DNA from: Gammaproteobacteria bacterium
GTDB lineage: Bacteria > Pseudomonadota > Gammaproteobacteria > Steroidobacterales > Foliamicaceae
NCBI GenBank assembly: GCA_963666765.1
Contig: OY762933.1
Span: 1,854,553-1,918,552, forward strand
Reading direction: 5' to 3'
DNA: 64,000 nt
Within the stretch, counting starts at the first letter, position 1. Each line of letters begins with the position of its first letter. Of this stretch, positions 24,205 to 47,677 are shown in pieces. The translations under genes and the position numbers were made by a program. A model generated the notes under the pieces. It searched no databases and had not been told where the DNA came from. It saw only the letters and a program-made list of their open reading frames with translations.

Positions 24205-25067
24205 GACTGCATCCCCGGTGCGCTCAACCCGAGCGCCTCGCAGATGGCCGCGGTCAGCGGTGCCCGGTTCATGGTGTAGATGTGAAAACGCTCCACGCCG
24301 TTCTCCGCCAGGTCTTGAACCTGGTCCAGCGTGAAACCGTCCGCGATTTCCCGTACCGCATCGGCGTCATCCGCGGCCTGTTCGAAGCGCGTGCGCAGCA
24401 CCGCCGGAACTTCAACGTGGGTCTTGCCGGCAAACGAGAACACCTGCCTGTGGTTGTGCAGGGGCATGATGCCGGGCGCCAGGAGCTTCTCCAGGCCCGC
24501 GGCGGCGAAGACATCGCGCAATCGGTAGTACCTGTCGTTATCGAGGAAGAACTGGGTGATGGCCAGGGTGGCGCCCGCGTCGAGCTTCTGCTTCACGAAC
24601 TCCAGGTGCTGACGCAAAGCAGCGCTGTCGCCGCCGCCGTGCTCCGGGTGCGCGCCCACCATGACCTCGCGTATTCCGGAGGCCCTCAGGTCGGCAATCA
24701 ATTCCACCGTCGAGGAATAGCCGCGCGAACGCACGTCCTCGGGAACGCCGTCCGCGGGGATGTCTCCGCGCAACGCAACCATTCTCCGCACGCCCTGTTC
24801 GACGTAGTCCCGCACGATCTCCCGCACCTCCTCGCGGGTGTGCGAGACATGAGTGAGATGGGGCGCGCAATCGCTGCCGTATTCGCGCCGGATCCGCCGC
24901 ACCCAGCGCGCCGTTCCGTCGCGCGTCGAGCCGCCGGCGCCATACGAGACGGTGCAGTACAGCGGGCCGTACGGCAACAGGCGCGCCAGCGTCGCCTCCA
25001 GCATCGCGGTCAGTTCTTCCGTTCGTGGCGGAAAGAACTCCAGCGAAATTTTTGCGGGTCGGTTCAT
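24201..25067 (-). CDS. metF: 5,10-methylenetetrahydrofolate reductase
   Basis: [12 protein letters not shown] near the N-terminus, and the length is typical. The ATG at 25067 is preferred over the TTG at 25088. Confidence 0.85.
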
Positions 25068-25193
25068 GGAAAACTCAAGCGTGGACAATTCACGCTGCGC
25101 GCATCATACTCATTCGCTTGCCCATTTCCCCGGCGGCTACCCATAGCGGCCTGCTTCAGGCCGCGGGTTCCGCCGGGCAATCGTTCGCCCGGC

Positions 25194-26414
25194 ATGTCCA
25201 GTTCCGCATTATCCACACCCGCCTACCGCCGCTTTCTGATCGGCAGCACCATCACTACGCACGGGCTTTGGATTCTGCGGCTGTCGCTGGGATGGCAGGC
25301 CTGGCAGCTGACCGAATCAGAGTTTTTCGTCGCGGCGGTAGCGTTTGCCGCTTATTTCCCGGTGGCCGTGCTGGGACCGGTATTCGGGGCCTACGCCGAC
25401 CGCTGGGACCGGCGCCGGGCGGCGCAGGTCTTCAACCTGCTCAACATCGGCGTCACCGCCGGCCTTTTCGGACTGGCGGCGCTCGGCCTGATGACGCCGG
25501 CCGCACTGTTTTTTCTGGCGCTGTCATTCGGCGTGTTCAGCGGCGGATATACGCCCATGCGCCTTGCCCTGATGGCCAACCTGGTGCCCTCCATGCAACT
25601 GGCCAGCGCCGTGGGACTCGGGGCGGTCAGCTTTAATATCGCGCGCGTCATCGGTCCGGTGCTCGGCGGTTACATCATCAAGTTCTTTGGCCTGGCGCCG
25701 GCGTTCGCGCTCAGCACCGCCACTTTTCTCGGCATGGCATGGGTGCTCTGGGACCTGAAGCTGCAACCCGTTACGCGTGAACTGGAGCGCCAGATCGGGC
25801 TGGCCCGCCTGCTGCGCGACGGCCTCAAGTACACGTTGAGTCATCCCGCGATCCGCTTCTACCTTGTACTGGTAATGATCGGCGCCACTTTCGGACGCGC
25901 CCTTTTCGAACTGATGGCGCCGTACGCGGACGAGGTTTTCCAGCGCGGCAGCGACGGCATGTCCCTGCTGATTTCGGCTTTCGGAGTCGGAGCAGTGCTG
26001 GGCGGCCTGTTTGTGGCCCGCAACAAGTCGCTGCAGCAACTTCGCAAGTGGACAGTCGTTTGCACGGCGCTAACCGGACTGCTCATCGTCGTATTCGGCT
26101 TTACCGGCAATTTCTGGCTCGCCATGCTGCAATTGCCGGTCTTCGGCTGCGTCCTGACCATTTGCGGAGTGGGATCGCAGACGCTTACCCAGACCGTCGT
26201 GAAAGAAAAGTACCGGGGCCGCGTGATGAGCCTGTGGAGCGTGGTGGCGTTCGGGGGCGTGGCCCTGGGCAGCGCGGCGCTTGGTGGCTGGGCCCAGTCG
26301 ATCGGCCTGACCGCGGCCACCGTGTATTGGGGCGGGGTGGCGGCTGTGTTGGGACTGTGCACCCTGCTCTGGCTGACGCGGGTTCCGCAGCCGGAGGCGG
26401 CCGGCGCCTCCTGA
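25194..26414 (+). CDS. MFS transporter
   Basis: This is the second half of track ORF 24282..26414; the first half is antisense to metF. It has about 12 hydrophobic segments and YADRWDRRR in loop 2-3. Confidence 0.75.
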   Translation: MSSSALSTPAYRRFLIGSTITTHGLWILRLSLGWQAWQLTESEFFVAAVAFAAYFPVAVLGPVFGAYADRWDRRRAAQVFNLLNIGVTAGLFGLAALGLMTPAALFFLALSFGVFSGGYTPMRLALMANLVPSMQLASAVGLGAVSFNIARVIGPVLGGYIIKFFGLAPAFALSTATFLGMAWVLWDLKLQPVTRELERQIGLARLLRDGLKYTLSHPAIRFYLVLVMIGATFGRALFELMAPYADEVFQRGSDGMSLLISAFGVGAVLGGLFVARNKSLQQLRKWTVVCTALTGLLIVVFGFTGNFWLAMLQLPVFGCVLTICGVGSQTLTQTVVKEKYRGRVMSLWSVVAFGGVALGSAALGGWAQSIGLTAATVYWGGVAAVLGLCTLLWLTRVPQPEAAGAS

Positions 26415-27743: not shown

Positions 27744-29384
27744 ATGATTCCCTGTGCAAAATCGTTTGCGAGGTTTCTCTCCGTCAACTCCTTCGACTAC
27801 ATCGTCGTGGGCGCCGGTTCGGCGGGCTGCGCCGTGGCCAACCGTTTGACGGAGCATCCGGACACGCGGGTATTGCTGCTGGAGGCCGGCGGCGCCGACC
27901 GCTCGCTGTATATCCGCATGCCCGCGGCGATCATCCGCGCCATCGGCAATCCGAAGATCGACTGGTGCTATCAGGCCGAACCCGATCCCAGCCGCAATAA
28001 TCGGGTCGACCTGTGGCCGGCCGGCAAGACCCTGGGCGGCAGCAGCTCGATCAACGGCATGCTTTTCGTGCGCGGCGCGGCCGATGACTTCGATCGCTGG
28101 GCCGCGGAAGGCTGCCCCGGCTGGAGCTACGCCGACGTGCTGCCGTATTTCAAGCGGATGGAATCCACGCCGCTGGGCGACGACCGTTGTCGCGGCCGCA
28201 CCGGCCCGGTACGCACCGCGGCCCTGCGCACCACGCATCCGCTGGCGCACACCTTCGTGCAGGCCGCCGTCGAGACAGGCCTGACGCTCAACCAGGACTA
28301 CAACGGCGTCTCCCAGGAGGGCGTGGCCTATACCGAAGTGAACCAGCAGCGTGGCCGCCGATTTAACGCCGCGAGGGCCTATCTGCATCCCGTGCGCCGG
28401 CGCCGCAATCTCGTGCTGCGCACCCGTAGCGCGTGCCACCGGCTGCTGTTTCGGAACGGCCGCTGCGTGGGCGTGGAATATCGGAATGGAGGCCGGCTTT
28501 ACCGCGCCGAGGCCGCACACGAGGTGATCCTGTGCGCCGGCGCCATCGCCTCCCCCAAGCTTCTCATGCTGTCGGGGATCGGGCCCGCGGAGCAGCTGCG
28601 CGAGGCCGGTATCGAAGTCGTCAGGGACCTTCCGGGCGTAGGCGCGAATCTTCAGGAACACCCCGAGGGCATGGTGGGCATCGATGTGAACGTGTCCACC
28701 TATAACACCGAGATCAACAGCTGGAAGATCGTCCTGCACGGGCTGAACTGGCTGCTGTTCGGCCGCGGGCCCGCCACCAGCCCTTACCCGCACGCGGTGG
28801 CCTTCATCCGCTCCACTCCTGATGAGCCAAGACCGGACATCCAGGTGCAACTGGGTCCCTACGCGTTCAGTTTCTCGGAAGAAGGCGTGATTCCGTATGA
28901 CCGCCCGGCCATTTCGGCCGCGATCAACGTTTCCCATCCCCGTTCGCGCGGCAGCATACGGCTGCGCAGCGCCGATCCGAATGCACCCCCGATCATTTCG
29001 CACGGGCTGCTGGCCGACGACGACGATATGGAGCGGCTGATCAAGGGTTGCCGGAAGGTCCGTGAAATACTCAACGGCGCCGCGTTCGCGCCGTACCGCA
29101 TAGGCGAGCGGCTGCCCGGCCCGGACGTGCATAGCTACGATGAATGGCGCGAATACCTGCGCCGGACCGCCTTTCTCGGCTACCACCCCGTGGGCACATG
29201 CAAAATGGGCACAGACGCGCTGGCGGTCACCCGGCCCGATTTGAGCGTGCACGGCATCGACGGGCTACGCGTTGCCGACGCTTCGGTGATGCCCAGTCTG
29301 ACCAGCGGCAATACCAACGCCACCGCGATGATGATCGGCGAGCGCGCGGCGGACCTCATCCGAAATAGCGGCGACGGCCGATGA
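27744..29384 (+). CDS. GMC-family FAD oxidoreductase (choline dehydrogenase-like)
   Basis: FDYIVVGAGSAGCAVANRL, GGSSSINGM, and the C-terminal HPVGTCKMG...NTNATAMMIGERAAD. Confidence 0.9.
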   Translation: MIPCAKSFARFLSVNSFDYIVVGAGSAGCAVANRLTEHPDTRVLLLEAGGADRSLYIRMPAAIIRAIGNPKIDWCYQAEPDPSRNNRVDLWPAGKTLGGSSSINGMLFVRGAADDFDRWAAEGCPGWSYADVLPYFKRMESTPLGDDRCRGRTGPVRTAALRTTHPLAHTFVQAAVETGLTLNQDYNGVSQEGVAYTEVNQQRGRRFNAARAYLHPVRRRRNLVLRTRSACHRLLFRNGRCVGVEYRNGGRLYRAEAAHEVILCAGAIASPKLLMLSGIGPAEQLREAGIEVVRDLPGVGANLQEHPEGMVGIDVNVSTYNTEINSWKIVLHGLNWLLFGRGPATSPYPHAVAFIRSTPDEPRPDIQVQLGPYAFSFSEEGVIPYDRPAISAAINVSHPRSRGSIRLRSADPNAPPIISHGLLADDDDMERLIKGCRKVREILNGAAFAPYRIGERLPGPDVHSYDEWREYLRRTAFLGYHPVGTCKMGTDALAVTRPDLSVHGIDGLRVADASVMPSLTSGNTNATAMMIGERAADLIRNSGDGR

Positions 29385-29451
29385 CGCCCAACGCCACAGG
29401 CCCAAGGCATTAGCCGGTCAGCCACCGAAACTTCAAGGGAGAAAACGAACC

Positions 29452-30327
29452 ATGGTCAACAGACGCACTTTCGTTACCGCCGCGGCCGGCGCGACCGGCT
29501 CATTGCTGGGGGCGCGGGCGCTTGAGGCCGCCGCACCCAAATCGGTCAGCCCGCCGGTAAGCCGGGTCGTCTCCGAGTTCCTCCATTTCGACGACCCGGT
29601 GGAGGAGTTTCGCGCGCAGATGCGCATGGAGCGCGACCTGGTCGAGGACCAGGGCACGACGCTGACCTGGTACCACTGGCTCGTATTCGTCATACCCGGG
29701 GGACGGCGCCCGGAACCCCTGATCCGCTACGAAGGAATCGAGTTCAGCTACTTCCGGCATCTCGGCGACCACAACTACCGCATCCATGCGCACAATGTTT
29801 CCTTCCCGCGCGACCTCAAGACCAACGCGTTCACGGATTCCGTGACCAATCCCATAACGGGCGAGCTTGTCGAGGTGCCCGTGACGCCGCTGCTAACCGA
29901 TCCGGGAACGATCGGGAGTCCCACCGGCTTTCGCAACCTGTCCGGCGACGGCTTTGTCCAGGCGCCCTACCGCAAGTTCCGGATCGAGAACGACCTGATC
30001 AAGATGGACCTGGTGCGCAGCGCCCCGCCCGACTGGCCTGCAACGCACATCGAGAATTCCTGCAACTGGGTGGAATTCGACCTGTTCGCGAACGAAACCA
30101 TCACTTCGTTACCCGCCCATTTCTGCGGACACTACGCATTCGAAAATCCCGCGTGGCTGAAGATGCCGGAAGGCATGGGCCACCTGGCGGGATTCTGGGA
30201 CGGCAAGAAAGTCAATTCCGCGTCCGAACTGCCGCGCGAGTTTCTCGACCGCATGGAGCGCGAATATCCGGAACTGCTCGAGCCACGCTGGGGCGAATTC
30301 GAGCGCCCGATCCCGTTTGATCTCTAG
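29452..30327 (+). CDS. Tat-signal protein, DUF1838-like family, paralogue B
   Basis: Leader MVNRRTFVTAAAGATGSLLGARA and family block FPRDLKTNAFTDSVTNPITGELVEVP. AAGGGAGAA lies upstream of the ATG. Confidence 0.7.
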   Translation: MVNRRTFVTAAAGATGSLLGARALEAAAPKSVSPPVSRVVSEFLHFDDPVEEFRAQMRMERDLVEDQGTTLTWYHWLVFVIPGGRRPEPLIRYEGIEFSYFRHLGDHNYRIHAHNVSFPRDLKTNAFTDSVTNPITGELVEVPVTPLLTDPGTIGSPTGFRNLSGDGFVQAPYRKFRIENDLIKMDLVRSAPPDWPATHIENSCNWVEFDLFANETITSLPAHFCGHYAFENPAWLKMPEGMGHLAGFWDGKKVNSASELPREFLDRMEREYPELLEPRWGEFERPIPFDL

Positions 30328-30354: not shown

Positions 30355-31614
30355 TCAGGCGTCCCATAGCATGCTGACCGGCATTCCGAACAATCCGGAG
30401 CCTGCCCGCTGGACATGCTCGCCGTCGTGCAGCACGATCCCGCAGACGAATCTTTCGCCGGCAGCCTCCCTCAGCCGCTCCAGCCCCCGGAAGTCCGGAG
30501 GCCGCAGGGTCGCACCGGCTTTGACTTCAATACCAACCAAAGTCCCGGGCGAGCGTTCCAGGACAAGGTCCACTTCCACGCCATCCTTGTCTCGATAATG
30601 ACTGATCGTTGCCGTCTCTCCGGACAGTGCGACGGCCTTGGCAAGCTCCGCAAAGACAAAACACTCAAGTAACGGACCCAAGGACTGGCGATCCTGCACA
30701 ATTTCCGCTGCTCCCGTCCGCCGGAGTGCAGCCAGCAATCCGGAATCCAGAAAATGCAGCTTCGGCGCCTTTACGAGCCGCTTTAATCCGCTGCGGCGCC
30801 AGGCGCGCACGCGACGTACCACGAACATGTGCTCAAGCAAGACAAGCCAGCGGTCCACCGTCTTGCTATCGACGCCGAGCCGGGTTCCAAGTTGAGACAT
30901 GTTGAGAAGTTGGCCGCCGGAAACCGCTGCATGGTCAATCAGCCGGACCATTTCATCGAGCTTTGTGACAGCGGCGATGTCGGAAACATCGCGCTCAGCC
31001 AGCGAACGTGCATAAGCGCGAAACCAGGCCCGGCGGCGCGCAGGCACGGGGCGCGACAGCGCTTCGGGAAAACCGCCGGCGACCAGCCGCTCGATCAGGT
31101 CGTCTGTCACGCCCCTGGCCGCAAAGGCCGGAAAGTCACCGGAGAACGCACACTCGAGAAACCGGGACGGTCCGGTGGCGGCAATCTCGGCTTGCGAGAA
31201 TGGCAGCAATTCGACGGTTTCGACGCGGCCGGCCAGAGAATCGGGAGACATCGATCCCTTGAAGAGATCGACTGAACCCGTAATCAGGTAGCTTCCGGGG
31301 CGAGGATTCTCGTCAACCCGTTTCTTGAGAGCGAGAATAAGTTCCGGGGCGCGCTGCACCTCATCGAACGCGGCAAACGGCAGGCCTCGCACCAGACCCA
31401 GTGGATCGTTCCGGGCGAATTGCCTGAACTGAACATCGTCCAGGGTAATGAAAGGACGGTTCTCGTCACGGGCGATGCGCTGTGCGAGCGTCGTCTTGCC
31501 GGACTGGCGCGGTCCAACGATGGCGACGATGCGCGTGTCCGTTAGCGCCGTACGAATCGGCTCCTCGGCGTGCCGCATCACAAATGTTTCGCTTTTGGCC
31601 GGCCGGTTCGGCAT
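30355..31614 (-). CDS. AAA-type ATPase with C-terminal DUF4143-like domain
   Basis: Walker A is GPRQSGKTT and Walker B is AAFDEVQ. The C-terminal LLECFVFAELAKA...GIEVKAGATLRPPDFRGL is typical of the AAA_14/DUF4143 family. Confidence 0.75.
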   Translation of the reverse strand: MPNRPAKSETFVMRHAEEPIRTALTDTRIVAIVGPRQSGKTTLAQRIARDENRPFITLDDVQFRQFARNDPLGLVRGLPFAAFDEVQRAPELILALKKRVDENPRPGSYLITGSVDLFKGSMSPDSLAGRVETVELLPFSQAEIAATGPSRFLECAFSGDFPAFAARGVTDDLIERLVAGGFPEALSRPVPARRRAWFRAYARSLAERDVSDIAAVTKLDEMVRLIDHAAVSGGQLLNMSQLGTRLGVDSKTVDRWLVLLEHMFVVRRVRAWRRSGLKRLVKAPKLHFLDSGLLAALRRTGAAEIVQDRQSLGPLLECFVFAELAKAVALSGETATISHYRDKDGVEVDLVLERSPGTLVGIEVKAGATLRPPDFRGLERLREAAGERFVCGIVLHDGEHVQRAGSGLFGMPVSMLWDA

Positions 31615-31688: not shown

Positions 31689-32627
31689 CTACTCTTCGAA
31701 TCCGCCCAGCGCGGCGTCCGGGTCCTCCAACACGTCGGGGTGCAGCCGCCGCGTGTAAGTCAGGAAGTCCTCCGGCAGGTCGTCGAGCGATCTGGCCCTG
31801 GCGCCGTGGCCGTTCGAGGACGTGTGGCCCGGAACCTCGCCCATGTGCATCCACGGCCGCCAGCTGGTCATCGCCGAGTAGTTCACCAGGGCGTCAACCC
31901 GGGTCAGGTTCGGATCCAGCACATCGTCAAGCGGCGCGGACCAGATCGTGGATTCCTTGTAGAACATGTTGGGTATGTCGCTGTCGGTGGGCCGAACCCG
32001 GCCGTGTTCCTCGTGGCGCAGAAGCAACGTGCCCTCGCGGACATATTCCCGATGTATGGACTTGGTCATACGGACTGATGCAGCCGGCGAGAAGGCCTCC
32101 TGCGTGGTGCCTTCCTGCGGCTCGAACTCGTGTCTTTCGTCGAGGCTTACGGCATACCGGGTGCGCGTGGGACCGAAGCGGAACGCAGGCACCTCCACTT
32201 CCCTGCCCGTAACCGGCATCACCAAAGTATCCAGCAGTTCCCAAGTCTCGAAATCCGTGTAATGGGTGATTTCCAGGACTACGGACTCGAACAGGTCATC
32301 GGAGACTTGCCGGAAGCGGCTGAAGGCCGCGCTGATGAGTCCGCAAAGCGGTTCGATGCGCCCCTGCGATATGGAAAATCTCTTGGCTCGCAGCCAGCCA
32401 ATCACGAGTTCGGAATCCAGGCTGCCGCGCATCTTGACCAGGGCGCGAAGGAGGTCCGGTTCCCGGTCGAGGTCGAGTTCCCCGGCCGCCGAGGCGCGCA
32501 ACGGAAGCATTCCGGGGCCGAGCATGGCGGCGCCCGCCAGCAGCGATTGGCACAGGCGTCGGCGGGTTGGCGACACGCCCGGCGCCGGTTCGGAATGAGG
32601 TTGAATCGGGAGCTGGATGTGCGACAT
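31689..32627 (-). CDS. Tat-signal protein, DUF1838-like family, paralogue C
   Basis: Leader SPTRRRLCQSLLAGAAMLG and family block HYTDFETWELLDTLVMPVTGREVEVP. GAGGAG lies upstream of the ATG. The gene is 9 nt downstream of the preceding gene. Confidence 0.7.
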   Translation of the reverse strand: MSHIQLPIQPHSEPAPGVSPTRRRLCQSLLAGAAMLGPGMLPLRASAAGELDLDREPDLLRALVKMRGSLDSELVIGWLRAKRFSISQGRIEPLCGLISAAFSRFRQVSDDLFESVVLEITHYTDFETWELLDTLVMPVTGREVEVPAFRFGPTRTRYAVSLDERHEFEPQEGTTQEAFSPAASVRMTKSIHREYVREGTLLLRHEEHGRVRPTDSDIPNMFYKESTIWSAPLDDVLDPNLTRVDALVNYSAMTSWRPWMHMGEVPGHTSSNGHGARARSLDDLPEDFLTYTRRLHPDVLEDPDAALGGFEE

Positions 32628-32636
32628 GGCGTCTCC

Positions 32637-33812
32637 TCAGTCTTCAAGACCGGCCAGGATCAGGTTGGGCAGGGTGGAAGTGAGCCAGTCGGGATGGACA
32701 TAACCCAGGCGGAGAATAACGAGCTCGTCATCCGGAATGACATACATGGTCCGGAAGCCGCCACCTTCCAGGAAGAAGACTCCGTCCGCTTTGATCGGCG
32801 GCCCGTGGGGAGCGGACTGTTCCCTGTCCTGCACGTACAGCCGGATTCCGTCCGGCGGATTGCCCGACCAGATCTGGTAGCCGTAATTCGGATAGACGGC
32901 CGACACGGTGGTCATCTCCTCCACCCAGCCGGCAGGCCAGAGGCGGCGGCCCGCGACACGGCCATCCGCCGCCAGTGCGGCGCCGTAGCGCAGCCAGTCC
33001 CTTGGGGTGGCGCGGTAGCAGCAATAGACCGCCGGCATGCCGCCCGGCCGGTCCATGTACAGCTGTGCGGGACCCGCGCCCAGCGGTGCCCAGAGCCTGC
33101 TGTTGAAGTAGTCCTCGTACGCTTCGCCGGTCGCGCTTTCCAGCACCGCGCCCACAAGCTGGGCATTGGCGTTGGAGAATGCGAAGAACTCGCCCGGCAC
33201 GTTCTCGAGATCGAAGTCCAATGCCGCCGCGCGAAAATCGGAGCCCAGCGATATCCGGGCGTTCTTGCTGTAGGGGTCCGGATCCCCGGCCAGGGGCGGG
33301 TTCTCCAGCCCGCTGAGATTCCGCAGCAACTGGCGCACGGTGATCGCGCCGCGGGCGTCATCCCGCCATTCGGGAAGATAGCGGCCGACCGGATCGTCAA
33401 GCGATTCAATCGCCCCTTCCTGCATTGCAATTGCGACCAGCGGGGGCAGCAGCGACCGGGTCATCGCGCGACCCGTGAACAGCGAGTCGGCCCCGATGTC
33501 CTGCCAGTAGCGTTCAAGCTGGATCACGCCCCGGTGCAGCACCAGCAGCGCAACGCTGTTGTGTTGTTCCGCCCAGCCCGCCGCCGCTTCCAGGGCGCCG
33601 GCATCTATCGTGAGCGCCGCCCCTTCGGCCGTAGGAAAGAACTCCCCCGGACTGCCCGGAACCTCGACCACCGGCTGGTAGTAGCTCGCCGGCCACTCTC
33701 CGGGGTCCTCCGGCAGCGTGTTCCAGCGGTACCAGAAACGCCAGTCAACAGACAGCGCCACCGCCAGCACGACGATGCCAATGGCGAAAGCGACGACGAC
33801 TGCGCGACGCAT
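32637..33812 (-). CDS. Membrane-anchored beta-lactamase-fold protein lacking the SxxK catalytic motif (paralogue of the N-terminal half of 13506..15704)
   Basis: It aligns by eye with 13506..15704 (…GAIES…, …ITxxxLLxxxSGLE). The SLHK position reads A-M-T-R (gcg atg acc cgg, 33456-33467). Confidence 0.7.
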   Translation of the reverse strand: MRRAVVVAFAIGIVVLAVALSVDWRFWYRWNTLPEDPGEWPASYYQPVVEVPGSPGEFFPTAEGAALTIDAGALEAAAGWAEQHNSVALLVLHRGVIQLERYWQDIGADSLFTGRAMTRSLLPPLVAIAMQEGAIESLDDPVGRYLPEWRDDARGAITVRQLLRNLSGLENPPLAGDPDPYSKNARISLGSDFRAAALDFDLENVPGEFFAFSNANAQLVGAVLESATGEAYEDYFNSRLWAPLGAGPAQLYMDRPGGMPAVYCCYRATPRDWLRYGAALAADGRVAGRRLWPAGWVEEMTTVSAVYPNYGYQIWSGNPPDGIRLYVQDREQSAPHGPPIKADGVFFLEGGGFRTMYVIPDDELVILRLGYVHPDWLTSTLPNLILAGLED

Positions 33813-33833
33813 GAGGTCCGGCCCCGACCGTCT

Positions 33834-36167
33834 CTACAGTCCGTATGTCAGCGTCAGGCCCAGCGTCTGCTTGTCGGCGAAAATCGGCACGTACGACGTG
33901 CCAAAACCCGTAGCTATGAAGAACGCACTGGTCGCATATTCTTCGTCCAACAGGTTTCTCGACCAAAGCGCCGCGCTCCACGATCCGTTGCTGACCTGAA
34001 ACCGTGCATGCACCACCGTGCGGTCCGGCAGCCAGGCGAGATTCATCTCATCCATGTACTGCTTGGTCTGGTGAATCACGTCGCCGCGCAGAAACCAGTC
34101 CCAGCCCGTCGGCAACGCCCCGCTGAAGGTGGCCCCAACGTTGAGCTGAAACGGCGGCTGGCGCTGGATATCGTTGCCGCCGATCGACCCGTCGCTGGGA
34201 CAGGCGACGCCATCGCAGGCGCCCAGCGAACCGATACGGCCGCTCACGGCACCGCTCTCGTATTCCGCATTGGAAAACGAGACCGCATAGTCCAGGGTGA
34301 AGTTGTCCGTCGCGGCCCAGGCGCCGTCAAGTTCGATTCCCCAGATTTTTGCGCCGCCGGTATTGCCCACGATAGCGGGCGCCAGGACGCCCTGTGGGAG
34401 ATCCGTAGGCGAGGTGTTGATCTGCAGATTGGTCCAGTCCGTGTAATAAACGGCCACGTTGGCCAGCCAGCGGCCGTCCATCAGCGTATTCTTGCTGCCG
34501 ACTTCGAAAGTCCAGTTCTCGTCCGGTTCGAAGCTGCGCTGCGCTTCATCGAAGACCGTATTGTTGAACCCGCCGGACTTGGCGCCCTTGGCGAGACTGG
34601 CATAGACCATCCGGTCCTCGCTCATGCGGTAATCCACCGTAAAACGGGGCGTGAACGGCGACCAGCTGTCCTCGAATTTGGGGCTGTCTGCGAGCCTCGT
34701 ATTGGAATCCAGGAATTTGTCCTCGTCGGTGATTCGGGCTTCCGCTCCCACGCGCCAGAGGCCGTCAGAAGACTCCCAGCCGATACGGCCGAATATCGCG
34801 TCCGTATCCACAGTGGTCCGGGCCCGGGTAAGCGCCAGCGCGGCGATGCCGCTGATGCCGTCGTTCGGATCGACGTCGAAGGGCTCGGTGCCGTTCAAGG
34901 GCGCGAACGCAAAGTCGAACAAGTCGAAGTCCTTGATTTCCGATTGGAAGGCGCCCAGCGATGCGGACCACGAGCCCTGTTCGAAATCGATCCGGATTTC
35001 GTGGGACGTGTACTCGCTCGTTCCCGCCGGCGTAACGTTCACGTAGTTCACCGGCGAGGCGGGATTGAAAAAGTTGAACGAGCCAAGCGCCGGATCGCGA
35101 TCGCCGGCGCCGGCCGCGATCACCTCCGAATCCACGCTCCCGAACTGGTAGGCGATGCGCCAGTTCTCGTTAAGGTCGACCACCACGCCGGCGTGGATGA
35201 AGTCGGACTCCACATCCAGCAGATAGCCGCGAGGATCGGAAGTCGCCTTCGTTTCCGGCGGGCTGCCGCCCGGCAATGGCGAGAACGTGGTGGGCAGTTC
35301 GCCGCAATAGAAGCGATCCGCCGCCCCACCGAAGAAGGTCCGCGAACAGTTGGTATCACCCGGCGCCTCGATGCGAACGCTCCCCTTCGTTTCCTGGAAG
35401 CGCTCCACGCTGTAGTAATCCAGATCCACCGCTACCTGCTCCGTCGGGCGGAACTCGACGTTCAGGCCCAGCGTCAGGTTGTCCCAGCCGCCCAGGTTGC
35501 CAACTGTCCCGCGATCGCTGTAGCCCGCGGAATTGGGATGCTCGTTGGCCCAGGTGCCGTCGAACTCGCTGTCGCTCACGAGCAGGCGCAGGCCGAGCAC
35601 ATCGGCGATGATGGGCCCGCCGACCTCGCCGTAAAGGTCCAGGCGTTCATCCGTGCCTGCGGTGACCTGAACCGACCCGCTCAACTCCTCGCCCGGTCCT
35701 CCACTGACGTAATTGACGGCCCCCAGGAAGGCATTGCGCCCGAACAGCGCGCTTTGGGGCCCCTTCACCACCTCGATCCGCTCGAATCCGCCGACGCCAA
35801 GGTCCACCATGTACTGGCGCGGAAGATAGATTCCGTCCAGGTAGATCGACGTGGTGTGGTCCAGGTCCTGGATGCGCATCTGGGCGCCGCCGCGAATCAC
35901 CGCGACCCCGTAACCGCCGCCAAAATCTTCATAAGCAAAACCGGACGTCGCGTGGGCGACGTCCTCCAGTTCGCGCATGCTGCGGCGGGCGATCTCTTCG
36001 GCCGAGAACGCCGTGATCGCGAGCGGCACTTCCTGCAGCCGCTCCTCCGCCTTGCGCGCGGTCACGATGATCTCCTCGAAGACCTCCGCCTCGTCGCCGG
36101 TCTGGGCCGCCAGGGTTGTTGCAAGCAGGACCAGAGCAGCCCCCGTAAGTTTTTGTGTGCAAGACAT
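33834..36167 (-). CDS. TonB-dependent outer-membrane receptor (TBDR2)
   Basis: Signal peptide followed by FEEIIVTARKAEERLQEVPLAITAF, and FERIEVVKGPQSALFGR. The ATG at 36167 follows AGAGGG. Confidence 0.9.
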   Translation of the reverse strand: MSCTQKLTGAALVLLATTLAAQTGDEAEVFEEIIVTARKAEERLQEVPLAITAFSAEEIARRSMRELEDVAHATSGFAYEDFGGGYGVAVIRGGAQMRIQDLDHTTSIYLDGIYLPRQYMVDLGVGGFERIEVVKGPQSALFGRNAFLGAVNYVSGGPGEELSGSVQVTAGTDERLDLYGEVGGPIIADVLGLRLLVSDSEFDGTWANEHPNSAGYSDRGTVGNLGGWDNLTLGLNVEFRPTEQVAVDLDYYSVERFQETKGSVRIEAPGDTNCSRTFFGGAADRFYCGELPTTFSPLPGGSPPETKATSDPRGYLLDVESDFIHAGVVVDLNENWRIAYQFGSVDSEVIAAGAGDRDPALGSFNFFNPASPVNYVNVTPAGTSEYTSHEIRIDFEQGSWSASLGAFQSEIKDFDLFDFAFAPLNGTEPFDVDPNDGISGIAALALTRARTTVDTDAIFGRIGWESSDGLWRVGAEARITDEDKFLDSNTRLADSPKFEDSWSPFTPRFTVDYRMSEDRMVYASLAKGAKSGGFNNTVFDEAQRSFEPDENWTFEVGSKNTLMDGRWLANVAVYYTDWTNLQINTSPTDLPQGVLAPAIVGNTGGAKIWGIELDGAWAATDNFTLDYAVSFSNAEYESGAVSGRIGSLGACDGVACPSDGSIGGNDIQRQPPFQLNVGATFSGALPTGWDWFLRGDVIHQTKQYMDEMNLAWLPDRTVVHARFQVSNGSWSAALWSRNLLDEEYATSAFFIATGFGTSYVPIFADKQTLGLTLTYGL

Positions 36168-36319
36168 ACAACCCTCTCTAAGAACAGCAGCCACCTGTCC
36201 GAAGCTAACGGAACCTGCACGGCGACGCAAATCCGCATACACAGCGCGCATAGCGGCATGCCTGGGCGTGATCGCGAACCGGGAGCGCCGGCACCCTTCG
36301 CTCGCTGGCAGCTGCCGGG

Positions 36320-37249
36320 CTAATGCGACTTGATTGTGAGTGTTTGCTCCGCGAAGCGCCGCAGATCGGCGTTGAAGCGTTCCGGCTGCTCGATAAACAC
36401 CGAGTGCCCGGCCCCTTCGTACACGGTAAGGCTCATGTTCTCGTGACTTGCAGCGAGTTCAGCCCCGTCGTCGAGCTGATAAGGATTGTCCTTCTCTCCC
36501 AGGCAAAACAGCACCGGCAGGGACAGTTGCCCGACCATGTCCTGGTTATCGAGCCGGCGGTGCGCCATGGCGCGCCGGACATAGGGCGGCAGCATCAGGC
36601 CGATGGCCCGAAACAACTGGAGCTCTTGTTCGGGCAGGGGTGATGCCGTAAGCAGGGGGATCACCCGCTCGCCGGCGCGAATATAGTCGATCAGGTCCGG
36701 GCTGCTCTGCAGTTCGCGGATTTTCGCAAACTCCTCGGCGTCGGGGTCGTCGTCCCCCGAGGGCATCCGGAAGGGCCTCAGGGCGCCCTGGCCGCCGGTC
36801 AGAATGATTCCCGCGATGCCGCTGTCGCCGAACTCGCGGATATAGTCCATCGCGACCATCGTGCCGTACGACCAGGCGACCACCACCGGCCGGTCCAGCC
36901 CGGTCGCCGCGATCACGGCGGCGACGTCCCGGGCCCAAACCGCGGACTCGCTGTAGGACTCCGTAGTCCACGGCTTGCCGGACGCCCCATGCCCCCTGAG
37001 GTCGAAGGACACGAGGTAATAATCATCAGCGAGATTCGAATCCATTTGCCGGACGAAACTGTAGTGGCTTTGACCGAAGCCATGGATAAGCAGGATCGCG
37101 GGCGAGGCCGGGTCCCCGGCCGTGACGACGTTAAGAGGCACGCCGTCCGCGCCTTCCACCGTTCGGTAGTCCCAGTCCGCCAGCGAGTACTGCGGCAGCA
37201 GCACCGCAAACAGCAGCGCAACAAGAGGCAAGAGCCTTCGCAAATTCAT
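36320..37249 (-). CDS. Secreted alpha/beta-hydrolase (ABH1)
   Basis: Sec signal LLPLVALLFAVLLPQYSLA, an oxyanion region LLIHGFGQS, and a nucleophile elbow VAWSYGT. Confidence 0.8.
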   Translation of the reverse strand: MNLRRLLPLVALLFAVLLPQYSLADWDYRTVEGADGVPLNVVTAGDPASPAILLIHGFGQSHYSFVRQMDSNLADDYYLVSFDLRGHGASGKPWTTESYSESAVWARDVAAVIAATGLDRPVVVAWSYGTMVAMDYIREFGDSGIAGIILTGGQGALRPFRMPSGDDDPDAEEFAKIRELQSSPDLIDYIRAGERVIPLLTASPLPEQELQLFRAIGLMLPPYVRRAMAHRRLDNQDMVGQLSLPVLFCLGEKDNPYQLDDGAELAASHENMSLTVYEGAGHSVFIEQPERFNADLRRFAEQTLTIKSH

Positions 37250-38061
37250 AGGTTGTCCTCCTCAAGGAATTCCGGATCCAGCGTTCGCAACTCGGCCTGA
37301 ATGGCCTGCGGATAATCGCCCGGACCGGCCAGCTTGGCGCCGGCCGCATGCCACCAGAGCGAACCCGGCCGCTGCATGCGCATCCACTCGCGCCAGTGCT
37401 CGACCGCGGTGAAACTCAGCCGGCACGGGACCCGGGTCGCCATGGGATCGGCCAGTTGCCCAGCATCTCCGGAAAAGATCATAAGGTCGGTATCCGGCTG
37501 CAACGCGCGCGCCACCGGGCTTGCGATGCGGTCCGTCAGGTGCACGACGTCGCCCAGCATGAACCACGGACGGATTGCGCGTGGCGGCGTGCCGGGTTCG
37601 TCTTCCACGGGCGCCATGCCATCAGTGAGCAACCGCGCGGCCGATGGTCCGTAACGCGTGACCGGCGGCTCGCAAAGCCTGTCGTTATACGGATTCAGCC
37701 AGTTCTTGAGCGGCTGTTCCGTTTCCCAATCCAGCAGGATGCCCACGTAGCGGGTTTCCAGGAGAAATTCCAGCGCGGACACCCGCGTATAGCGGCTGCG
37801 CTGCGCGCCGATCAGCTTGAACAGCGGCCGTGGCGCCTCTTCGGACACCAGCCCGTACACGTCGCCCCGGACAATGTCGTAGACCGGCCCGCCGGCCAGG
37901 TCGCCACGCAACTTGACGTAAGCCGTGAGGTTGCTCTCGGGGTCGTCGAGCCCGAGTTCGGTTTCGGGGACGCCGGAATTCTTCGCCCACGCGTGACGCT
38001 CCACGCCGATCCCCAGAGAGCCGATGCCGGCAAGCGCTGCGCGGCGTGTCATTTCTGCCAT
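37246..38061 (-). CDS. Tat-signal protein, DUF1838-like family, paralogue D
   Basis: The ATG at 38061 lies 9 nt after GGAGGA. Leader MAEMTRRAALAGIGSLGIG and family block ILLDWETEQPLKNWLNPYNDRLCEPP. ATGA overlap with ABH1. Confidence 0.65.
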   Translation of the reverse strand: MAEMTRRAALAGIGSLGIGVERHAWAKNSGVPETELGLDDPESNLTAYVKLRGDLAGGPVYDIVRGDVYGLVSEEAPRPLFKLIGAQRSRYTRVSALEFLLETRYVGILLDWETEQPLKNWLNPYNDRLCEPPVTRYGPSAARLLTDGMAPVEDEPGTPPRAIRPWFMLGDVVHLTDRIASPVARALQPDTDLMIFSGDAGQLADPMATRVPCRLSFTAVEHWREWMRMQRPGSLWWHAAGAKLAGPGDYPQAIQAELRTLDPEFLEEDNL

Positions 38062-38220
38062 TATCCGGTTTCCTCCAGCGAGGCGAGGCGCCAGTCCTGG
38101 CAATCGAGGCGCAGTGCAGCGTTCGGCCAACCGTTGATCCGGTCGATCCTGAAGTCGTCGCGGCGCGCTGAAGGTGAGTGTGAAAGAGACGTTCCCTTCC
38201 GCACCTCCATTGCTCTGATT

Positions 38221-40623
38221 CTAAAAGCTCGCGGCCAGCGTCAGGCCGTACGTGCGCGGCTCGGGCAACGTCAGCTGGTAACCCAGCGTACCGGTCAGGA
38301 AACTGCCCGTGGTGCGCTGCGATGAAAGCACGGAGTCGTCATCGGTCACGTTTTCGACCCACAAGGTAACGCTGTAGCGATCGTTGCGCCAGCCACCGCG
38401 AAGATTGTGCAGCACCGCCTCCTCTGTCTTGGCAAGGTTGATCACCCAGGTCCAGGTTGACGACTGATACCAGGCATCCCAGCGGGCGAACCACTCGCCG
38501 TCGCCAGTCCAGATGTTCTCGGCGGGCATATTGAAGTCCAGAGCAAATGTCGCGGCATGATCCGGCGAGCGGGCCACCTCCAGGCCACTTGCATCAGCGC
38601 TGCCATAGACCCGTCTGTTCTGGTTATCCTGATAAACCTTGATTTCGCTGCTGTTGTGGTTGTAGGACGCGGTGCCGCGCCAGTTCTCGCTGAACGCCCA
38701 GCTTGCCGCCAGCTCAAACCCCCAGATGTCGGTGCTGCCGTTACTGTCGTAATCGACCTGTGCGCCGAGCCGGTCCGACCCCTGAATGAAACGGCCGTCA
38801 CCGTTGCTGTCCACGTCTCTGGTGAAGCCCCTGAAGCGCTGGTTTCTCCATTGCATGACATAGACCGCCCCGTTGACGTAGCCCCTGCCGCCGGCGAGGG
38901 TGTGCTTGCCGCCGAACTCGAAGGAGTCAAGCTCGGCCTGCAGGACCTCGTAGCCGATCCCTTCCGACGCGTTGAACGCCGGGAACGCGACCGTGGGCTC
39001 CAACTGGATGACCTCGGGATTGAAGCCGCCCGGATTGTTGCCCTTCGAATAGCTTGCATAAAGCAGGGTGTTGTCAGTCAACTTGTAGTCAACGATGACC
39101 CGCGGCAGCTCCGCCTCGAAATCGGCGGCCAGGTCGACCTCGGCCCCGCCGAAGGGCTGCGCCGTACCGATGGGATCGTTCGGATCGAGCGGCATGGCCT
39201 CCTGTATCACGGAGGAGGCGTTCGCAAGCTCTTCCTCTTCATAACGGAATTCAAGGCTGACTGTCAGCTGCTCGGTAATGTCATAAGCCACGCTGGCGAA
39301 TATCGCCTGGTTTTCGACGTTCTGGGCAATGACTGGAGTAGGAGAGAAAAGGCCGCGGCCGCCTCTTCCGCTGATCGCGCCGATGGTCGGGTCGAAGCAG
39401 AAGGGTCCACCGCCAGGGCAGGGGAAGGCGGTTAATCCTTCTTTGCCGTACGTCAGGTCGAGATAGTAGGCGCCCACCATCCAGCGCAGCCTTTTGTCCT
39501 GGGGCGAGGTCAGGCGCACTTCCTGGGACCACGACTCGTCCTTCCATCCCACGTAGACCTGAAGCTCGTCCGTGAGGAGTTCGCGCAATTCCGCCGTGTC
39601 CTCGCGGTACTGACCCGTCACTGAGCTCAACGTGTAGCCGCCGATGTCCCAGTCAATATTCAGGCTGGTGAGTTCGGTTGTGCGATCAAGTCCCATGTTG
39701 TCCTTGTAGACCGTATCCTCCACAGGCGACGTGTCGATGGCGATGCCGTTGGAGATCAGGCCTCGGCTCAGCGTTCCGCAGTAGTAATTGCTGGTCCCCA
39801 TAACACCGTTGGTGGTGAACGGCCCGCAATTGTTGTTCTCGCCCTTGACCAGAAACTGAACCGCCAGCCCGTCGTCGTCCTCGGTTCGCACATGACGCAG
39901 CTTGATGGAGAGGTCTTCCGTCGGCGTGGCGTAGAGAGTCACGCTGCCGGCGTTCGTCTGCTGGGAGCCCAGATCACCGCCGGTGGGGTGCTCGTTTTTC
40001 CAGGCCCCGTCGTAAGTGTAAAACCGGCCGGACGCCCGGAAGTACAGTCGGTCTTCAACGATCGGACCCTCGGCGCTGACCCACACGTCCGCGCGGCCGC
40101 TGTCGCCCAGGATCAGGTTGATGTCGCCGTTGAAGTCATCGCCCGGCGTCCTGCTGATGAAATTGATCGCACCGCCGAAGGTGGCCCGGCCGAAAAAGGC
40201 GCTTTGCGGGCCTTTCACGACCTCCACGCGCTCGATGTCGTTCATGGAAAGCCACTGGCTGGTTCCCGGCAGATAGACGCCGTCCACGAAGGCGGATGAT
40301 GTCTGCGAGCTGCGCACGCTCGAAGGGGGGTCGATGGCGCGAAACCGGATCGCCGGATTGTTGCGGTTTCCGGTGTGGTTGCTCATGTGCACGCCCGGAA
40401 CGAACTGAAGCATGTCTTCGACATCGGTGATCTGCTGCTCCCTGAGCTGCTCGGAGCTGAAAGCCGCGACGCTCAGCGGGATGTCCTGAATCGACTCGTC
40501 GCGCTTGCGCGCTGTCACCACGATTTCTTCAAGCGCAAGATCTTGCGCCATGACTGCCATATCGGCAGCGAACAGACTCATTACGGCGGCGCCTATCAAC
40601 AGGCGATTGTGCAGACTACGCAT
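38221..40623 (-). CDS. TonB-dependent outer-membrane receptor (TBDR3)
   Basis: Signal peptide followed by LEEIVVTARKRDESIQDIPLSVAAF, and IERVEVVKGPQSAFFGR. It ends in an aromatic residue (..LAASF). The ATG at 40623 follows GGGAGGGG. Confidence 0.9.
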   Translation of the reverse strand: MRSLHNRLLIGAAVMSLFAADMAVMAQDLALEEIVVTARKRDESIQDIPLSVAAFSSEQLREQQITDVEDMLQFVPGVHMSNHTGNRNNPAIRFRAIDPPSSVRSSQTSSAFVDGVYLPGTSQWLSMNDIERVEVVKGPQSAFFGRATFGGAINFISRTPGDDFNGDINLILGDSGRADVWVSAEGPIVEDRLYFRASGRFYTYDGAWKNEHPTGGDLGSQQTNAGSVTLYATPTEDLSIKLRHVRTEDDDGLAVQFLVKGENNNCGPFTTNGVMGTSNYYCGTLSRGLISNGIAIDTSPVEDTVYKDNMGLDRTTELTSLNIDWDIGGYTLSSVTGQYREDTAELRELLTDELQVYVGWKDESWSQEVRLTSPQDKRLRWMVGAYYLDLTYGKEGLTAFPCPGGGPFCFDPTIGAISGRGGRGLFSPTPVIAQNVENQAIFASVAYDITEQLTVSLEFRYEEEELANASSVIQEAMPLDPNDPIGTAQPFGGAEVDLAADFEAELPRVIVDYKLTDNTLLYASYSKGNNPGGFNPEVIQLEPTVAFPAFNASEGIGYEVLQAELDSFEFGGKHTLAGGRGYVNGAVYVMQWRNQRFRGFTRDVDSNGDGRFIQGSDRLGAQVDYDSNGSTDIWGFELAASWAFSENWRGTASYNHNSSEIKVYQDNQNRRVYGSADASGLEVARSPDHAATFALDFNMPAENIWTGDGEWFARWDAWYQSSTWTWVINLAKTEEAVLHNLRGGWRNDRYSVTLWVENVTDDDSVLSSQRTTGSFLTGTLGYQLTLPEPRTYGLTLAASF

Positions 40624-40691
40624 GGTGTCCCCTCCCAACTAGTCTTGATGATGCTTGTTCAGCGGCCAATGCCGCGGACCAAGCCTCACTA

Positions 40692-40708
40692 TGTTAACGG
40701 CTGTTAAC
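40692..40708. promoter_or_regulatory. Direct repeat TGTTAAC x2 (10-bp offset) in an AT-richer gap upstream of TBDR3
   Basis: The sequence is atgttaacggctgttaacca. It lies 69-85 nt upstream of the TBDR3 ATG and just after the hydrolase stop. Confidence 0.25.
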
Positions 40709-40719
40709 CACAAATTTGA

Positions 40720-41889
40720 TTACCAGTTCCGGATGCTGGTGAAATGGCGCGATGCGTCCGCGGCATCCACGGGCTGATAGGACGCCTGCGAATTGGGACC
40801 GTCGCGCGGCACGTACCGCTCGTAGACCGGCCGCAGCATCTCCATCGGAACGCCGGGCGGAATGGAACGTGAGCCGCGGAATGCGGCCATCGGAATGGTT
40901 GTCCGCACGAACTCCTCGTGCACCGACCGGGCGCGCGCCGCGATCGTTCCGCGCGGATCGAAGATGGCCGTGTCGCCCGAACCCGAGAACTCCGGAAAGC
41001 CCGGTTGCTCCGGCGAGACGGACTGGTTGCAGACGACGCTCCAGAGCCGGTTGTGCCGCGCGATTGTCTGGGCCCCGGTCAGGCTGTAACCCCCCGAAGA
41101 CGAGCTCAGGCGGATTTCCAGACCCTTCATGGCGAGCGCACGTATCACGTCCGGCTGGCTGGGCGTGATCGAGCAGGAAATATTGCCGATATCGGTGCGC
41201 GCCACCTGCAACACGGCATCCTCTCCGTACATCTCGCGGTAGCGGTCGAGCACATCGTAGATCCCGGTCGTAAAGATGTCCCAGCCGGGAATGAATCCGC
41301 GAATATTGTTGGTCTTCCAGTGATTGGCGACCACATTGCCCTCGGGGCCGATCAGCACGCCGTTGAGCAGCAGATGGCCCGGCCAGTCCGGGTCTTTGGC
41401 ATAGGTGCCGAAAGTGATGTAGCAGCCGTATTCCTTCGCTTTCTTGCCCAGCGCCTCGGTTTCCGGCCCCGGTATTTCGATGGCCACGCGCAGCACTTCT
41501 TCGCGGGTCCATGGATTCCAGCCCATGATCGGCTGCTCGTGGAAGCACACGAGGTCCTGCGGGCCCCCAAAACCATTTGCCTTGTCTATCAGTTCGAGCA
41601 TGTGGTCGAGGTTCGCCTTCATCTCATGTGCGGGATTCGCCGTGTCGCGGACCGCGCGCATGATGGATTGCACGGCGGTCACCCGCAGCGTGTCCTTGCG
41701 CAGCGGCACGCGCTCGTAGTTGCCGTCCGCCGCCACGCTGACGGCTCCCCCGCCGCCCGCCGCAGCGCCTTCGGCCCTTGCAGCCCCGCTTCCCAATGCC
41801 AGGGCCACTGCGCCGGCCGAACCGGCCGCCAGTATCTCCCGGCGCCGCGGGGACCGCGGAGAATCGTTCCTGTCGAGCTTGTCACTCAT
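40720..41889 (-). CDS. Carbon-nitrogen hydrolase (nitrilase superfamily) with Tat signal
   Basis: The leader is SPRRREILAAGSAGAVALALGSGAARA. Candidate E-K-C triad contexts are VCFHEQPIMGW, ITFGTYAKD and GNISCSITP. Confidence 0.7.
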   Translation of the reverse strand: MSDKLDRNDSPRSPRRREILAAGSAGAVALALGSGAARAEGAAAGGGGAVSVAADGNYERVPLRKDTLRVTAVQSIMRAVRDTANPAHEMKANLDHMLELIDKANGFGGPQDLVCFHEQPIMGWNPWTREEVLRVAIEIPGPETEALGKKAKEYGCYITFGTYAKDPDWPGHLLLNGVLIGPEGNVVANHWKTNNIRGFIPGWDIFTTGIYDVLDRYREMYGEDAVLQVARTDIGNISCSITPSQPDVIRALAMKGLEIRLSSSSGGYSLTGAQTIARHNRLWSVVCNQSVSPEQPGFPEFSGSGDTAIFDPRGTIAARARSVHEEFVRTTIPMAAFRGSRSIPPGVPMEMLRPVYERYVPRDGPNSQASYQPVDAADASRHFTSIRNW

Positions 41890-41892
41890 GCC

Positions 41893-42903: not shown

Positions 42904-42907
42904 GCTG

Positions 42908-43753: not shown

Positions 43754-43879
43754 TTCTTCTCTCCCGATTTGCCGATGGCCAGAGTCGATGAACACGTGAG
43801 CATCACACAATCACCCCCAGGCCTTCGTGCATCCTATACCGGATTATGCGTCCTGACTTCAGGAGCAAACGGCTGGAGG

Positions 43880-45358: not shown

Positions 45359-45459
45359 GGCACTAGCATGCCACGGAAAGGGCCTGGCCAATTGCAAACG
45401 GCCTGCGGCCTGTCTAGACTCGCAGGTTGGGAATACGCGCATCAACCGGGAGGCCCGCC

Positions 45460-46455: not shown

Positions 46456-46465
46456 CACCGGGAAC

Positions 46466-46482
46466 GAGGGCGTCCCGCCCTC
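46466..46482. terminator. Short GC palindrome between convergent genes
   Basis: The sequence is gagggcgtcccgccctc (7-bp stem, 3-nt loop). It shares the core cgtcccgccc with 20481 and 51924. Confidence 0.35.
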
Positions 46483-47569: not shown

Positions 47570-47677
47570 TCTCCCCGGGCTGATGCCGTGTCGAGGAAGC
47601 CCTCTCCGCCATGGAAGTCTTCGCCGGCAATGTTACGCCCTGTCCCCCCAGAGCATAAAATTCACCGCCGTCGCGCG

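Follow-up and report, generated by a model that had tools for sequence, protein, structure and literature searches.

Background

PIB-1 (PA5542) of Pseudomonas aeruginosa is an atypical class C beta-lactamase-related serine hydrolase (PDB 8rlj), of which the catalytic residues are Ser131, Lys134 and Tyr230 and the third motif is A366-Q367-G368 (bioRxiv 10.1101/2024.03.05.583521). Lsa45 (8dc1), NylB (1wyb, 4gb7) and the family VIII carboxylesterases EstG and EH7 have the same fold, belong to the same subgroup of the Pfam family PF00144, and all use an SxxK motif together with a tyrosine. Pseudoenzymes are a known phenomenon, and the MEROPS family S12 has its 'non-peptidase homologues'. In the present study, we analyzed a gene at positions 32637-33812 (minus strand) of a 64,000-nucleotide stretch of DNA (hereafter, the window) from a gammaproteobacterium of the family Foliamicaceae (assembly GCA_963666765.1, contig OY762933.1, positions 1,854,553 to 1,918,552). 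Its product belongs to the same family as these hydrolases and has lost their serine, lysine and tyrosine. An earlier reading of the letters alone (the original prediction) had described it as a paralogue of the product of 13506-15704 in which SxxK is replaced by A-M-T-R, and had proposed for it a retained non-hydrolytic role, such as substrate binding or hand-over from an adjoining receptor.

Fold and catalytic motifs

The open reading frame (ORF) starts with ATG and encodes 391 amino acid residues on the minus strand, a strand that the original prediction did not give. Residues 79-367 match PF00144 (Beta-lactamase; E 1.3e-27, with a score of 97 bits, above the cut-off of 27). An AlphaFold2 (AF2) model based on 77 homologues had a mean pLDDT of 93.6 and a pTM of 0.92, and its best Foldseek match was PIB-1 (8rlj; E 5e-22, TM-score 0.72); the matches to 8rlj, 8dc1 and the NylB-type 6-aminohexanoate-dimer hydrolases had E values from 1e-15 to 5e-22 and TM-scores of 0.65-0.73. 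By homology, the product belongs to the PF00144/MEROPS S12/class C beta-lactamase-related fold. NCBIfam gave only sub-threshold matches, the top one being 3-succinylated cholic acid synthase (37 bits against a cut-off of 800). With its beta-lactamase-like fold and no adjoining permease genes, the protein differs from the Venus-flytrap solute-binding proteins of the ATP-binding cassette (ABC), tripartite ATP-independent periplasmic (TRAP) and tripartite tricarboxylate (TTT) transporters, and any resemblance to periplasmic solute-binding proteins is functional only.

The first catalytic motif is replaced by R115-A116-M117-T118-R119-S120 (33453-33470, minus strand), at the position where the Ser-bearing relatives have x-S-M-H-K-S. 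The codons at 33456-33467 (minus strand) are GCG ATG ACC CGG (AMTR), and those of the paralogue at 13875-13886 (plus strand) are TCG CTG CAC AAG (SLHK). The two tetrapeptides are paired in the BLASTP alignment of the products (31% identity over 372 residues with 4 gaps, E 4e-55), an alignment that runs through the N-terminal half of the 732-residue paralogue, including the GAIES and IT...L.....GLE segments, as originally described. AMTR also stands opposite S-V-V-K of PIB-1 (8rlj) and S-V-T-K of Lsa45 (8dc1), both in phmmer searches against PDB chains and in profile searches. Codons and alignments thus agree with the claim that the nucleophilic serine and the lysine are missing. Furthermore, the His typical of the family in S-M-H-K is replaced by Thr (T118).

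The second and third motifs, which the original prediction had left for a later check, were located with the same alignments. The second motif (YxN) is F212-S213-N214 (33171-33179, minus strand), which has Phe for the Tyr and retains the Asn; PIB-1 has Y-S-T (Tyr230) and Lsa45 has Y-S-N at this position. The third motif (KTG; AQG in PIB-1) corresponds to L348-E349-G350 (32763-32771, minus strand), in which the Gly is invariant, an Asp of the relatives is replaced by Glu, and the two positions besides Gly are non-canonical, as they are in the active enzyme PIB-1. The phmmer alignment places Ser131, Lys134, Tyr230 and Thr232 (the Asn position of YxN) of PIB-1 on A116, R119, F212 and N214, respectively, and the profile alignment places A366-Q367-G368 on L348-E349-G350 (PIB-1 numbering is the chain index of 8rlj plus 23). 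Motifs 1 and 2, by which serine beta-lactamases, S12 peptidases and family VIII esterases are catalytically defined, are both lacking. A regular-expression search found no [ST]xxK in the whole protein, which contains only two lysines, K183 and K341. Therefore, the loss is more complete than originally noticed, and only the Asn of motif 2 and the Gly of motif 3 remain. A misalignment that conceals a functional Ser-x-x-Lys elsewhere in register, by which the original prediction could have failed, is refuted by this result and by the three independent alignments (BLASTP to the paralogue, phmmer and profile to PDB chains) that put AMTR on SxxK. An alignment to Lsa45, together with the AmpC sequence, had made F353-R354-T355 a candidate for the KTG equivalent; it was ruled out by the profile alignment to PIB-1. 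R354 was likewise rejected as a net gain of Arg: Q354-R355 of the relatives corresponds to R354-T355 in the serine-less proteins, a shift of one residue. The C-terminal 102 residues alone gave only chance matches to alphavirus E2 in the PDB.

The product starts with a hydrophobic helix, residues 2-21 (RRAVVVAFAIGIVVLAVALS; 33750-33809, minus strand), seen in the AF2 model and in the sequence, and so does the paralogue, in agreement with the N-terminal anchor originally described for both. The helix is predicted to be either a signal anchor or a cleavable signal peptide. It is followed by a conserved aromatic stretch, DWRFWYRW, of which D23, W24, W27, R29 and W30 are conserved.

Conservation and selection

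Among the 120 database homologues listed (48-97% identity), about 115 have a RAMTR-type motif and 3 have S-M-S-K. A scan of species-representative genomes gave 54 loci, and the 29 with at least 66% identity were treated as orthologues. All 29 are intact ORFs with RAMTRS at 115-120 and with E-G-G-G-[YF]-R after motif 3 (349-354), and the Tyr position is occupied by L or F in every one of them, against Y in 18 and H in 6 of the 25 Ser-bearing relatives, all of which keep both S and K in motif 1. The hosts of the orthologues are the sponge-type 'Candidatus Foliamicus', other gammaproteobacterial metagenome-assembled genomes, Halieaceae, Congregibacter, Woeseiaceae, Lysobacterales and the isolate Glaciecola sp. 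33A.

The ratio of non-synonymous to synonymous substitutions (dN/dS), for which the original prediction had also called, has a median of 0.16 and a range of 0.06-0.25 among orthologues (Nei-Gojobori method, 167 pairs with dS of 0.05-1.5), which indicates purifying selection; between the window gene and its orthologues it is 0.10-0.17. The neighboring genes gave 0.10-0.26 (alpha/beta hydrolase), 0.11-0.22 (DUF1838) and 0.12-0.18 (GMC oxidoreductase), and selection on the serine-less gene is thus equal to or tighter than that on the adjacent enzyme genes. The absence of the catalytic residues is the sole point in favor of an explanation by gene decay, by a mutation specific to one strain or by a sequencing error. 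Intact reading frames in 29 of 29 orthologues, the same motif across several gammaproteobacterial orders and in nearly all of the database homologues, and the low dN/dS refute this explanation, and neither frameshifts nor relaxed selection, either of which would have spoken for it, were found in the orthologues. The original view that the gene is not a decaying one therefore holds.

Phylogeny and clade-specific residues

An exhaustive HMMER search of 1.84 billion representatives returned 276 proteins at E<=1e-30. A crude neighbor-joining tree was calculated from 140 domains of nearly full length; on it, the serine-less proteins group in a single clade, in which the variants of motif 1 include RAMTR, RAMSR, RAITR, RGMTK, RAMTK and GALSR. 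This RAMTR clade has a signature that the window protein also carries: R-A-M-T-R-[ST] in motif 1, CC.R in residues 264-267, E-G-G-G-[YF]-R in residues 349-354, and a hydrophobic amino acid in place of the Tyr. At 35-43% identity there are relatives with Ser, Lys and Tyr all in place, of which the signature is x-S-M-H-K-S, [DE]-Y-N-N, C-C and D-G-x-G-G-Q-R. In a sister clade with R-S-x-T-K, Ser and Lys are kept, R115 and R267 ('CC.RA') are already in place, and Tyr is gone. The composition of this sister clade suggests a stepwise path, in which Tyr was lost and Arg gained first, and Ser and Lys were lost afterwards. A second, independent clade without the nucleophile is also found in the family (P0333, P0347, P0368, P0329 and P0364).

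We compared the 29 orthologues with the 25 Ser-bearing relatives. Residues invariant in, and specific to, the serine-less clade are R115 (A, F, H or Q in the relatives; opposite the pocket residue Phe130 of PIB-1), A116, T118 (His in the relatives), R119, N165, K183, R267 and E349 (Asp in the relatives), and the acidic pair D377 and D/E378 of the relatives is lost. The segment C264-C265-Y-R267 (33012-33023, minus strand) combines a Cys-Cys pair common to the Ser-bearing relatives with the clade-only R267, and C264 is opposite the PIB-1 pocket residue Ser283. The residues N214, C264, Y310, W315 and G350 of the pocket floor are shared with the active relatives; W315 is opposite Trp347 of PIB-1 through a common YGYQ.W motif. 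Judged from these alignments, the positions that map to the pocket appear to shift toward positive charge in the serine-less clade.

The paralogue at 13506-15704 (plus strand) consists of a transmembrane helix, a PF00144 domain with the SLHK motif kept, and a DUF3089 domain with GHSQG at 15123-15137, as found by BLASTP and Pfam; Trp occupies its catalytic Tyr position (Y-I-W-S-N). DUF3089 corresponds to the lipolytic family XV with the GHSQG motif (PMC4431682). The 'WSNAS / EGHF.QR' signature of the paralogue is found in two other representatives (P0290 and P0303), so that the Tyr-less proteins of this type form a conserved subfamily in their own right. Among the relatives in the PF00144 family there are fusions to alpha/beta hydrolase domains of the esterase type, either DUF3089 or domains like chlorophyllase and platelet-activating factor acetylhydrolase (PAF-AH), and also to sulfatase domains of the formylglycine-generating enzyme (FGE) type; the esterase-domain fusions fit a partnership between PF00144 and esterase domains. 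The family also occurs as tandem double PF00144 proteins of approximately 780-810 residues (tandem and fusion set P0241-P0247, P0291, P0313, P0307 and P0385).

Gene neighborhood

The serine-less gene lies between a TonB-dependent receptor (TBDR) gene with plug and barrel domains (33834-36251, minus strand) and a DUF1838 gene (31689-32627, minus strand) encoding a Tat-type RR leader and an all-beta fold. From the TBDR stop to the ATG of the serine-less gene there are 21 nt, and from its stop to the ATG of DUF1838 there are 9 nt, including GGAG, which bears out the tight coupling of the three genes noticed earlier. The true start of the TBDR is probably the Met at residue 29. Farther upstream on the minus strand are a secreted alpha/beta hydrolase with the nucleophile elbow AWSYG (36320-37249), similar to non-haem haloperoxidase/arylesterase-type esterases (PDB 7yii, 4x00 and 4rnc, E 1e-31 to 1e-35), and a second DUF1838 gene of the same co-directional array (37246-38130), which overlaps the start of the hydrolase by 4 nt. 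Along the minus strand the array reads amine oxidase, DUF1838, alpha/beta hydrolase, CN-hydrolase, TBDR, DUF1838, alpha/beta hydrolase, TBDR, the serine-less gene and DUF1838; it is followed by an AAA_14/DUF4143 gene and then by a convergent pair on the plus strand (27744-30327). The pair consists of a GMC oxidoreductase gene (27744-29384) and of the third DUF1838 gene (29452-30327), both of which are syntenic with the orthologue of the serine-less gene in related genomes. The first five of these genes form a second module upstream on the same strand (38221-45538). Indeed, the window, with a GC content of 65%, contains several co-directional modules of TBDR, DUF1838, hydrolase or oxidoreductase genes, and the serial arrangement suggests that several related cassettes for uptake and processing form a family here.

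A DUF1838 gene, detected with a hidden Markov model (HMM), is present within 5 kb at all 30 serine-less loci (mean 2.8 genes) and at 6 of the 25 Ser-bearing loci (mean 0.24). In the window, such genes are located 9 nt downstream and approximately 3.4 kb upstream of the serine-less gene, and the linkage also holds at an alphaproteobacterial locus (L049) with 45% identity. In tblastn searches, an orthologous alpha/beta hydrolase was found near approximately 24 of the 30 serine-less loci and a TBDR near approximately 20. In most of the related loci, the immediate upstream neighbor is the alpha/beta hydrolase, which in the closest sponge-symbiont relatives is located between the TBDR and the serine-less gene. 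Fewer than half of the orthologous loci have the TBDR as the next gene upstream. The proposed hand-over from the receptor is thus only weakly indicated: the adjoining TBDR in the window speaks for it, and the minority of loci with this arrangement, together with DUF1838 as the invariant neighbor, speaks against it. P0282, of the R-S-x-T-K sister clade, adjoins a TBDR. It also adjoins a divergent DUF1838-like gene (35.9 bits) and perhaps a second one, with a borderline score (20.9 bits); because of these neighbors, the linkage with DUF1838 may predate the loss of Ser.

Five clear DUF1838 genes are present in the window (11005-12009, minus; 29452-30327, plus; 31689-32627, 37246-38130 and 42908-43810, minus), and each adjoins a gene for a TBDR, a hydrolase or a flavin oxidoreductase. 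Among 69 aligned DUF1838 sequences, the twin-arginine (Tat-type) leader does not vary. No relative of DUF1838 was found in the PDB by sequence search. An AF2 model of the product of 31689-32627 (pLDDT 86.7) is an all-beta curved sheet, to which Foldseek found no close fold in the PDB; the top matches, with TM-scores of 0.3 or less, were the lipid-carrier-like sheets of LmcA, LolA3, ApoB/vitellogenin and DUF1329. With scores this low, a role of DUF1838 as a LolA- or LmcA-like lipid carrier is only a hint.

Several other features were observed. At the window locus and at two related loci (L001 and L027) only, an ATPase gene with AAA_14 and DUF4143 domains (30355-31614, minus strand, in the window) separates two syntenic DUF1838 genes. 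Its GC content at third codon positions (GC3) is 0.69, compared with approximately 0.80 in its neighbors. The gene looks like an insertion, because it is absent from the same place in the other orthologous loci. In Glaciecola sp. 33A (locus L018, 3559-7810), the serine-less gene (7983-9206) is separated from the orthologous TBDR by genes for a DUF3604 protein, a peptidyl-prolyl isomerase (PPIase) and a membrane protein of the HupE/UreJ_2 type, and is followed by three DUF1838 genes, an alpha/beta hydrolase, and LuxR- and LysR-type regulators. A plus-strand ORF of 1397 residues (32130-36323) is antisense to three real genes and is a shadow ORF of this 65% GC genome, not a gene. Over-extended starts are probable for the arginyl-tRNA synthetase ORF (46346-49420, plus strand; 1024 residues, first Pfam domain at residue 448) and for the MFS_3 transporter ORF (24282-26414, plus strand; 710 residues, domain from residue 309).

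Possible function of the serine-less protein

With moderate confidence, we propose that the product of 32637-33812 is a non-catalytic binding or partner module in a pathway of DUF1838, esterase and TBDR proteins, a periplasm-facing descendant of PF00144 hydrolases with a remodelled basic pocket. The residues of catalysis are lost, the fold and the pocket floor are kept, and the pocket appears to be re-lined with basic residues; therefore, a non-catalytic binding module is the most likely function. Its ancestors would have been membrane-anchored PF00144 serine hydrolases related to PIB-1, Lsa45 and NylB, and the protein itself would face the periplasm, either anchored in the inner membrane or secreted. 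Covalent serine catalysis was presumably given up through the replacements Ser to Ala, Lys to Arg, Tyr to Phe or Leu, and the family His to Thr. From these four changes we infer, as the original prediction did, a non-hydrolytic role, or at least the lack of a serine nucleophile. The fold and the floor residues N214, C264, Y310, W315 and G350 would have been retained, and the conserved R115, R119, R267 and K183, with the loss of the acidic D377 and D/E378, may have given the pocket a basic lining. Such a module might bind a compound that the surrounding pathway consumes or produces, probably an anion that is ester-derived or carries a carboxylate, and might act jointly with the adjoining TBDR, the secreted alpha/beta esterase and the DUF1838 proteins exported by the Tat pathway. 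The pathway probably handles ester- or carboxylate-type compounds; PDB sequence searches with the TBDR and the hydrolase gave no substrate class beyond 'esterase-like'.

Several points weigh against this proposal. The 30 loci linked to DUF1838 are phylogenetically clustered, and 12 of them are close sponge-symbiont relatives. The neighbor-joining tree is crude. The assignment of a basic pocket relies on alignment to the published list of PIB-1 pocket residues, in which the loop positions K183 and 377-378 are loosely mapped. Taken as a whole, the protein has a net charge of approximately -17, compared with -4 in its relatives, and is thus the more acidic; the local basic shift is therefore no part of a global trend. 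Finally, the conservation of the pocket, including the invariant E349, C264-C265, H93, E100 and D254, fits a new catalytic chemistry equally well.

This last point leads to an alternative that we regard as rather unlikely, namely that the protein is an enzyme acting on a new anionic substrate by non-serine chemistry, with Cys264 or Cys265 as the nucleophile, with non-covalent catalysis by Glu349 assisted by Arg, or with a metal. The pocket is indeed the most conserved part of the protein, with C264, C265, E349, R115, R119, R267, N214 and W315 all invariant; C264 is opposite a PIB-1 pocket residue, PIB-1 itself is stimulated by metal, and the sister clade with Ser and Lys and without Tyr means that the family tolerates altered catalytic sets. 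However, the Cys-Cys pair, H93, E100 and D254 are present in the Ser-bearing relatives as well and are therefore no compensatory innovations, the gains specific to the clade (Arg, Lys, Asn and Thr) are poor nucleophiles, and at 349 one acidic residue replaces another (Asp to Glu), a conservative change. A protein-protein regulator or scaffold that binds no small ligand, and that works at the inner membrane in the manner of EnvC and NlpD, as an anchor or activator of the alpha/beta esterase, DUF1838 or the active paralogue (PF00144-DUF3089), is also improbable in our view, if slightly less so. The N-terminal membrane helix, the consistent adjacency to alpha/beta hydrolase and DUF1838 genes, the occurrence of relatives as tandem double PF00144 proteins and PF00144-esterase fusions, and the presence of an active paralogue in the same window are all in line with such a function. 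Nevertheless, the strongest clade-specific conservation falls on the former active-site positions, and no obvious surface patch is seen.

If the binding module proposed above is placed in its wider context, one may speculate, although we consider this doubtful, that marine and sponge-associated Proteobacteria have an unrecognised periplasmic system for uptake and processing, made up of the RAMTR clade, a secreted esterase, a TBDR and the Tat-exported DUF1838 proteins. In such a system, the former hydrolase would be a receptor lined with arginines for an anionic compound derived from a lipid or an ester, or else an enzyme with a new, serine-free chemistry. We found no description of the RAMTR clade, of its RAMTR/CC.R/EGGG[YF]R signature, or of its link to DUF1838 in TBDR-rich loci in the searchable literature, and all three appear to be previously undescribed. 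In databases, proteins of the clade are named 'serine hydrolase' or 'CubicO group peptidase (beta-lactamase class C family)'. These names are wrong for the whole conserved clade, and surveys of resistomes or esterases that count PF00144 domains will over-call. Furthermore, the series of clades from the full catalytic set, through the loss of Tyr with the gain of Arg, to the loss of Ser and Lys offers natural material on how an enzyme with the beta-lactamase fold becomes a non-enzyme. The invariant linkage is a first functional handle on DUF1838, a large, uncharacterised, Tat-exported family that has expanded beside TBDRs (at least five genes in 64 kb). Since the isolate Glaciecola sp. 33A carries the cluster, the hypothesis is testable.

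Comparison with known systems

Among the described proteins, PIB-1 is the best match in both sequence and fold, although the identity is only approximately 22%. The two proteins have in common an N-terminal extension of approximately 80 residues before the domain (bioRxiv 10.1101/2024.03.05.583521), a non-canonical motif 3 in which Gly alone is kept (AQG in PIB-1, LEG here), and the YGYQ.W motif of the pocket floor. However, PIB-1 keeps its Ser, Lys and Tyr and hydrolyzes carbapenems, whereas the serine-less protein has Ala, Arg and Phe at these positions, and the pocket residue Phe130 of PIB-1 corresponds to Arg115. Lsa45, NylB and the family VIII carboxylesterases act on esters or amides, not on cell-wall peptides, which fits the esterase-rich context of the gene; they differ from its product in that the latter has neither SxxK nor the Tyr. 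Like the wider family of membrane-anchored proteins with the 'xSMHKS / YNN / CC / DGxGGQR' signature, the paralogue at 13506-15704 resembles the product in its N-terminal transmembrane helix, its Cys-Cys pair and its neighborhood of TBDR and DUF1838 genes, but it keeps Ser, His and Lys, with Trp for Tyr, and is fused to an esterase domain of family XV. The degenerate LytM factors EnvC and NlpD, which have an enzyme fold without the catalytic residues and are kept by selection for binding or regulation, provide an analogy for the path that the RAMTR clade may have taken.

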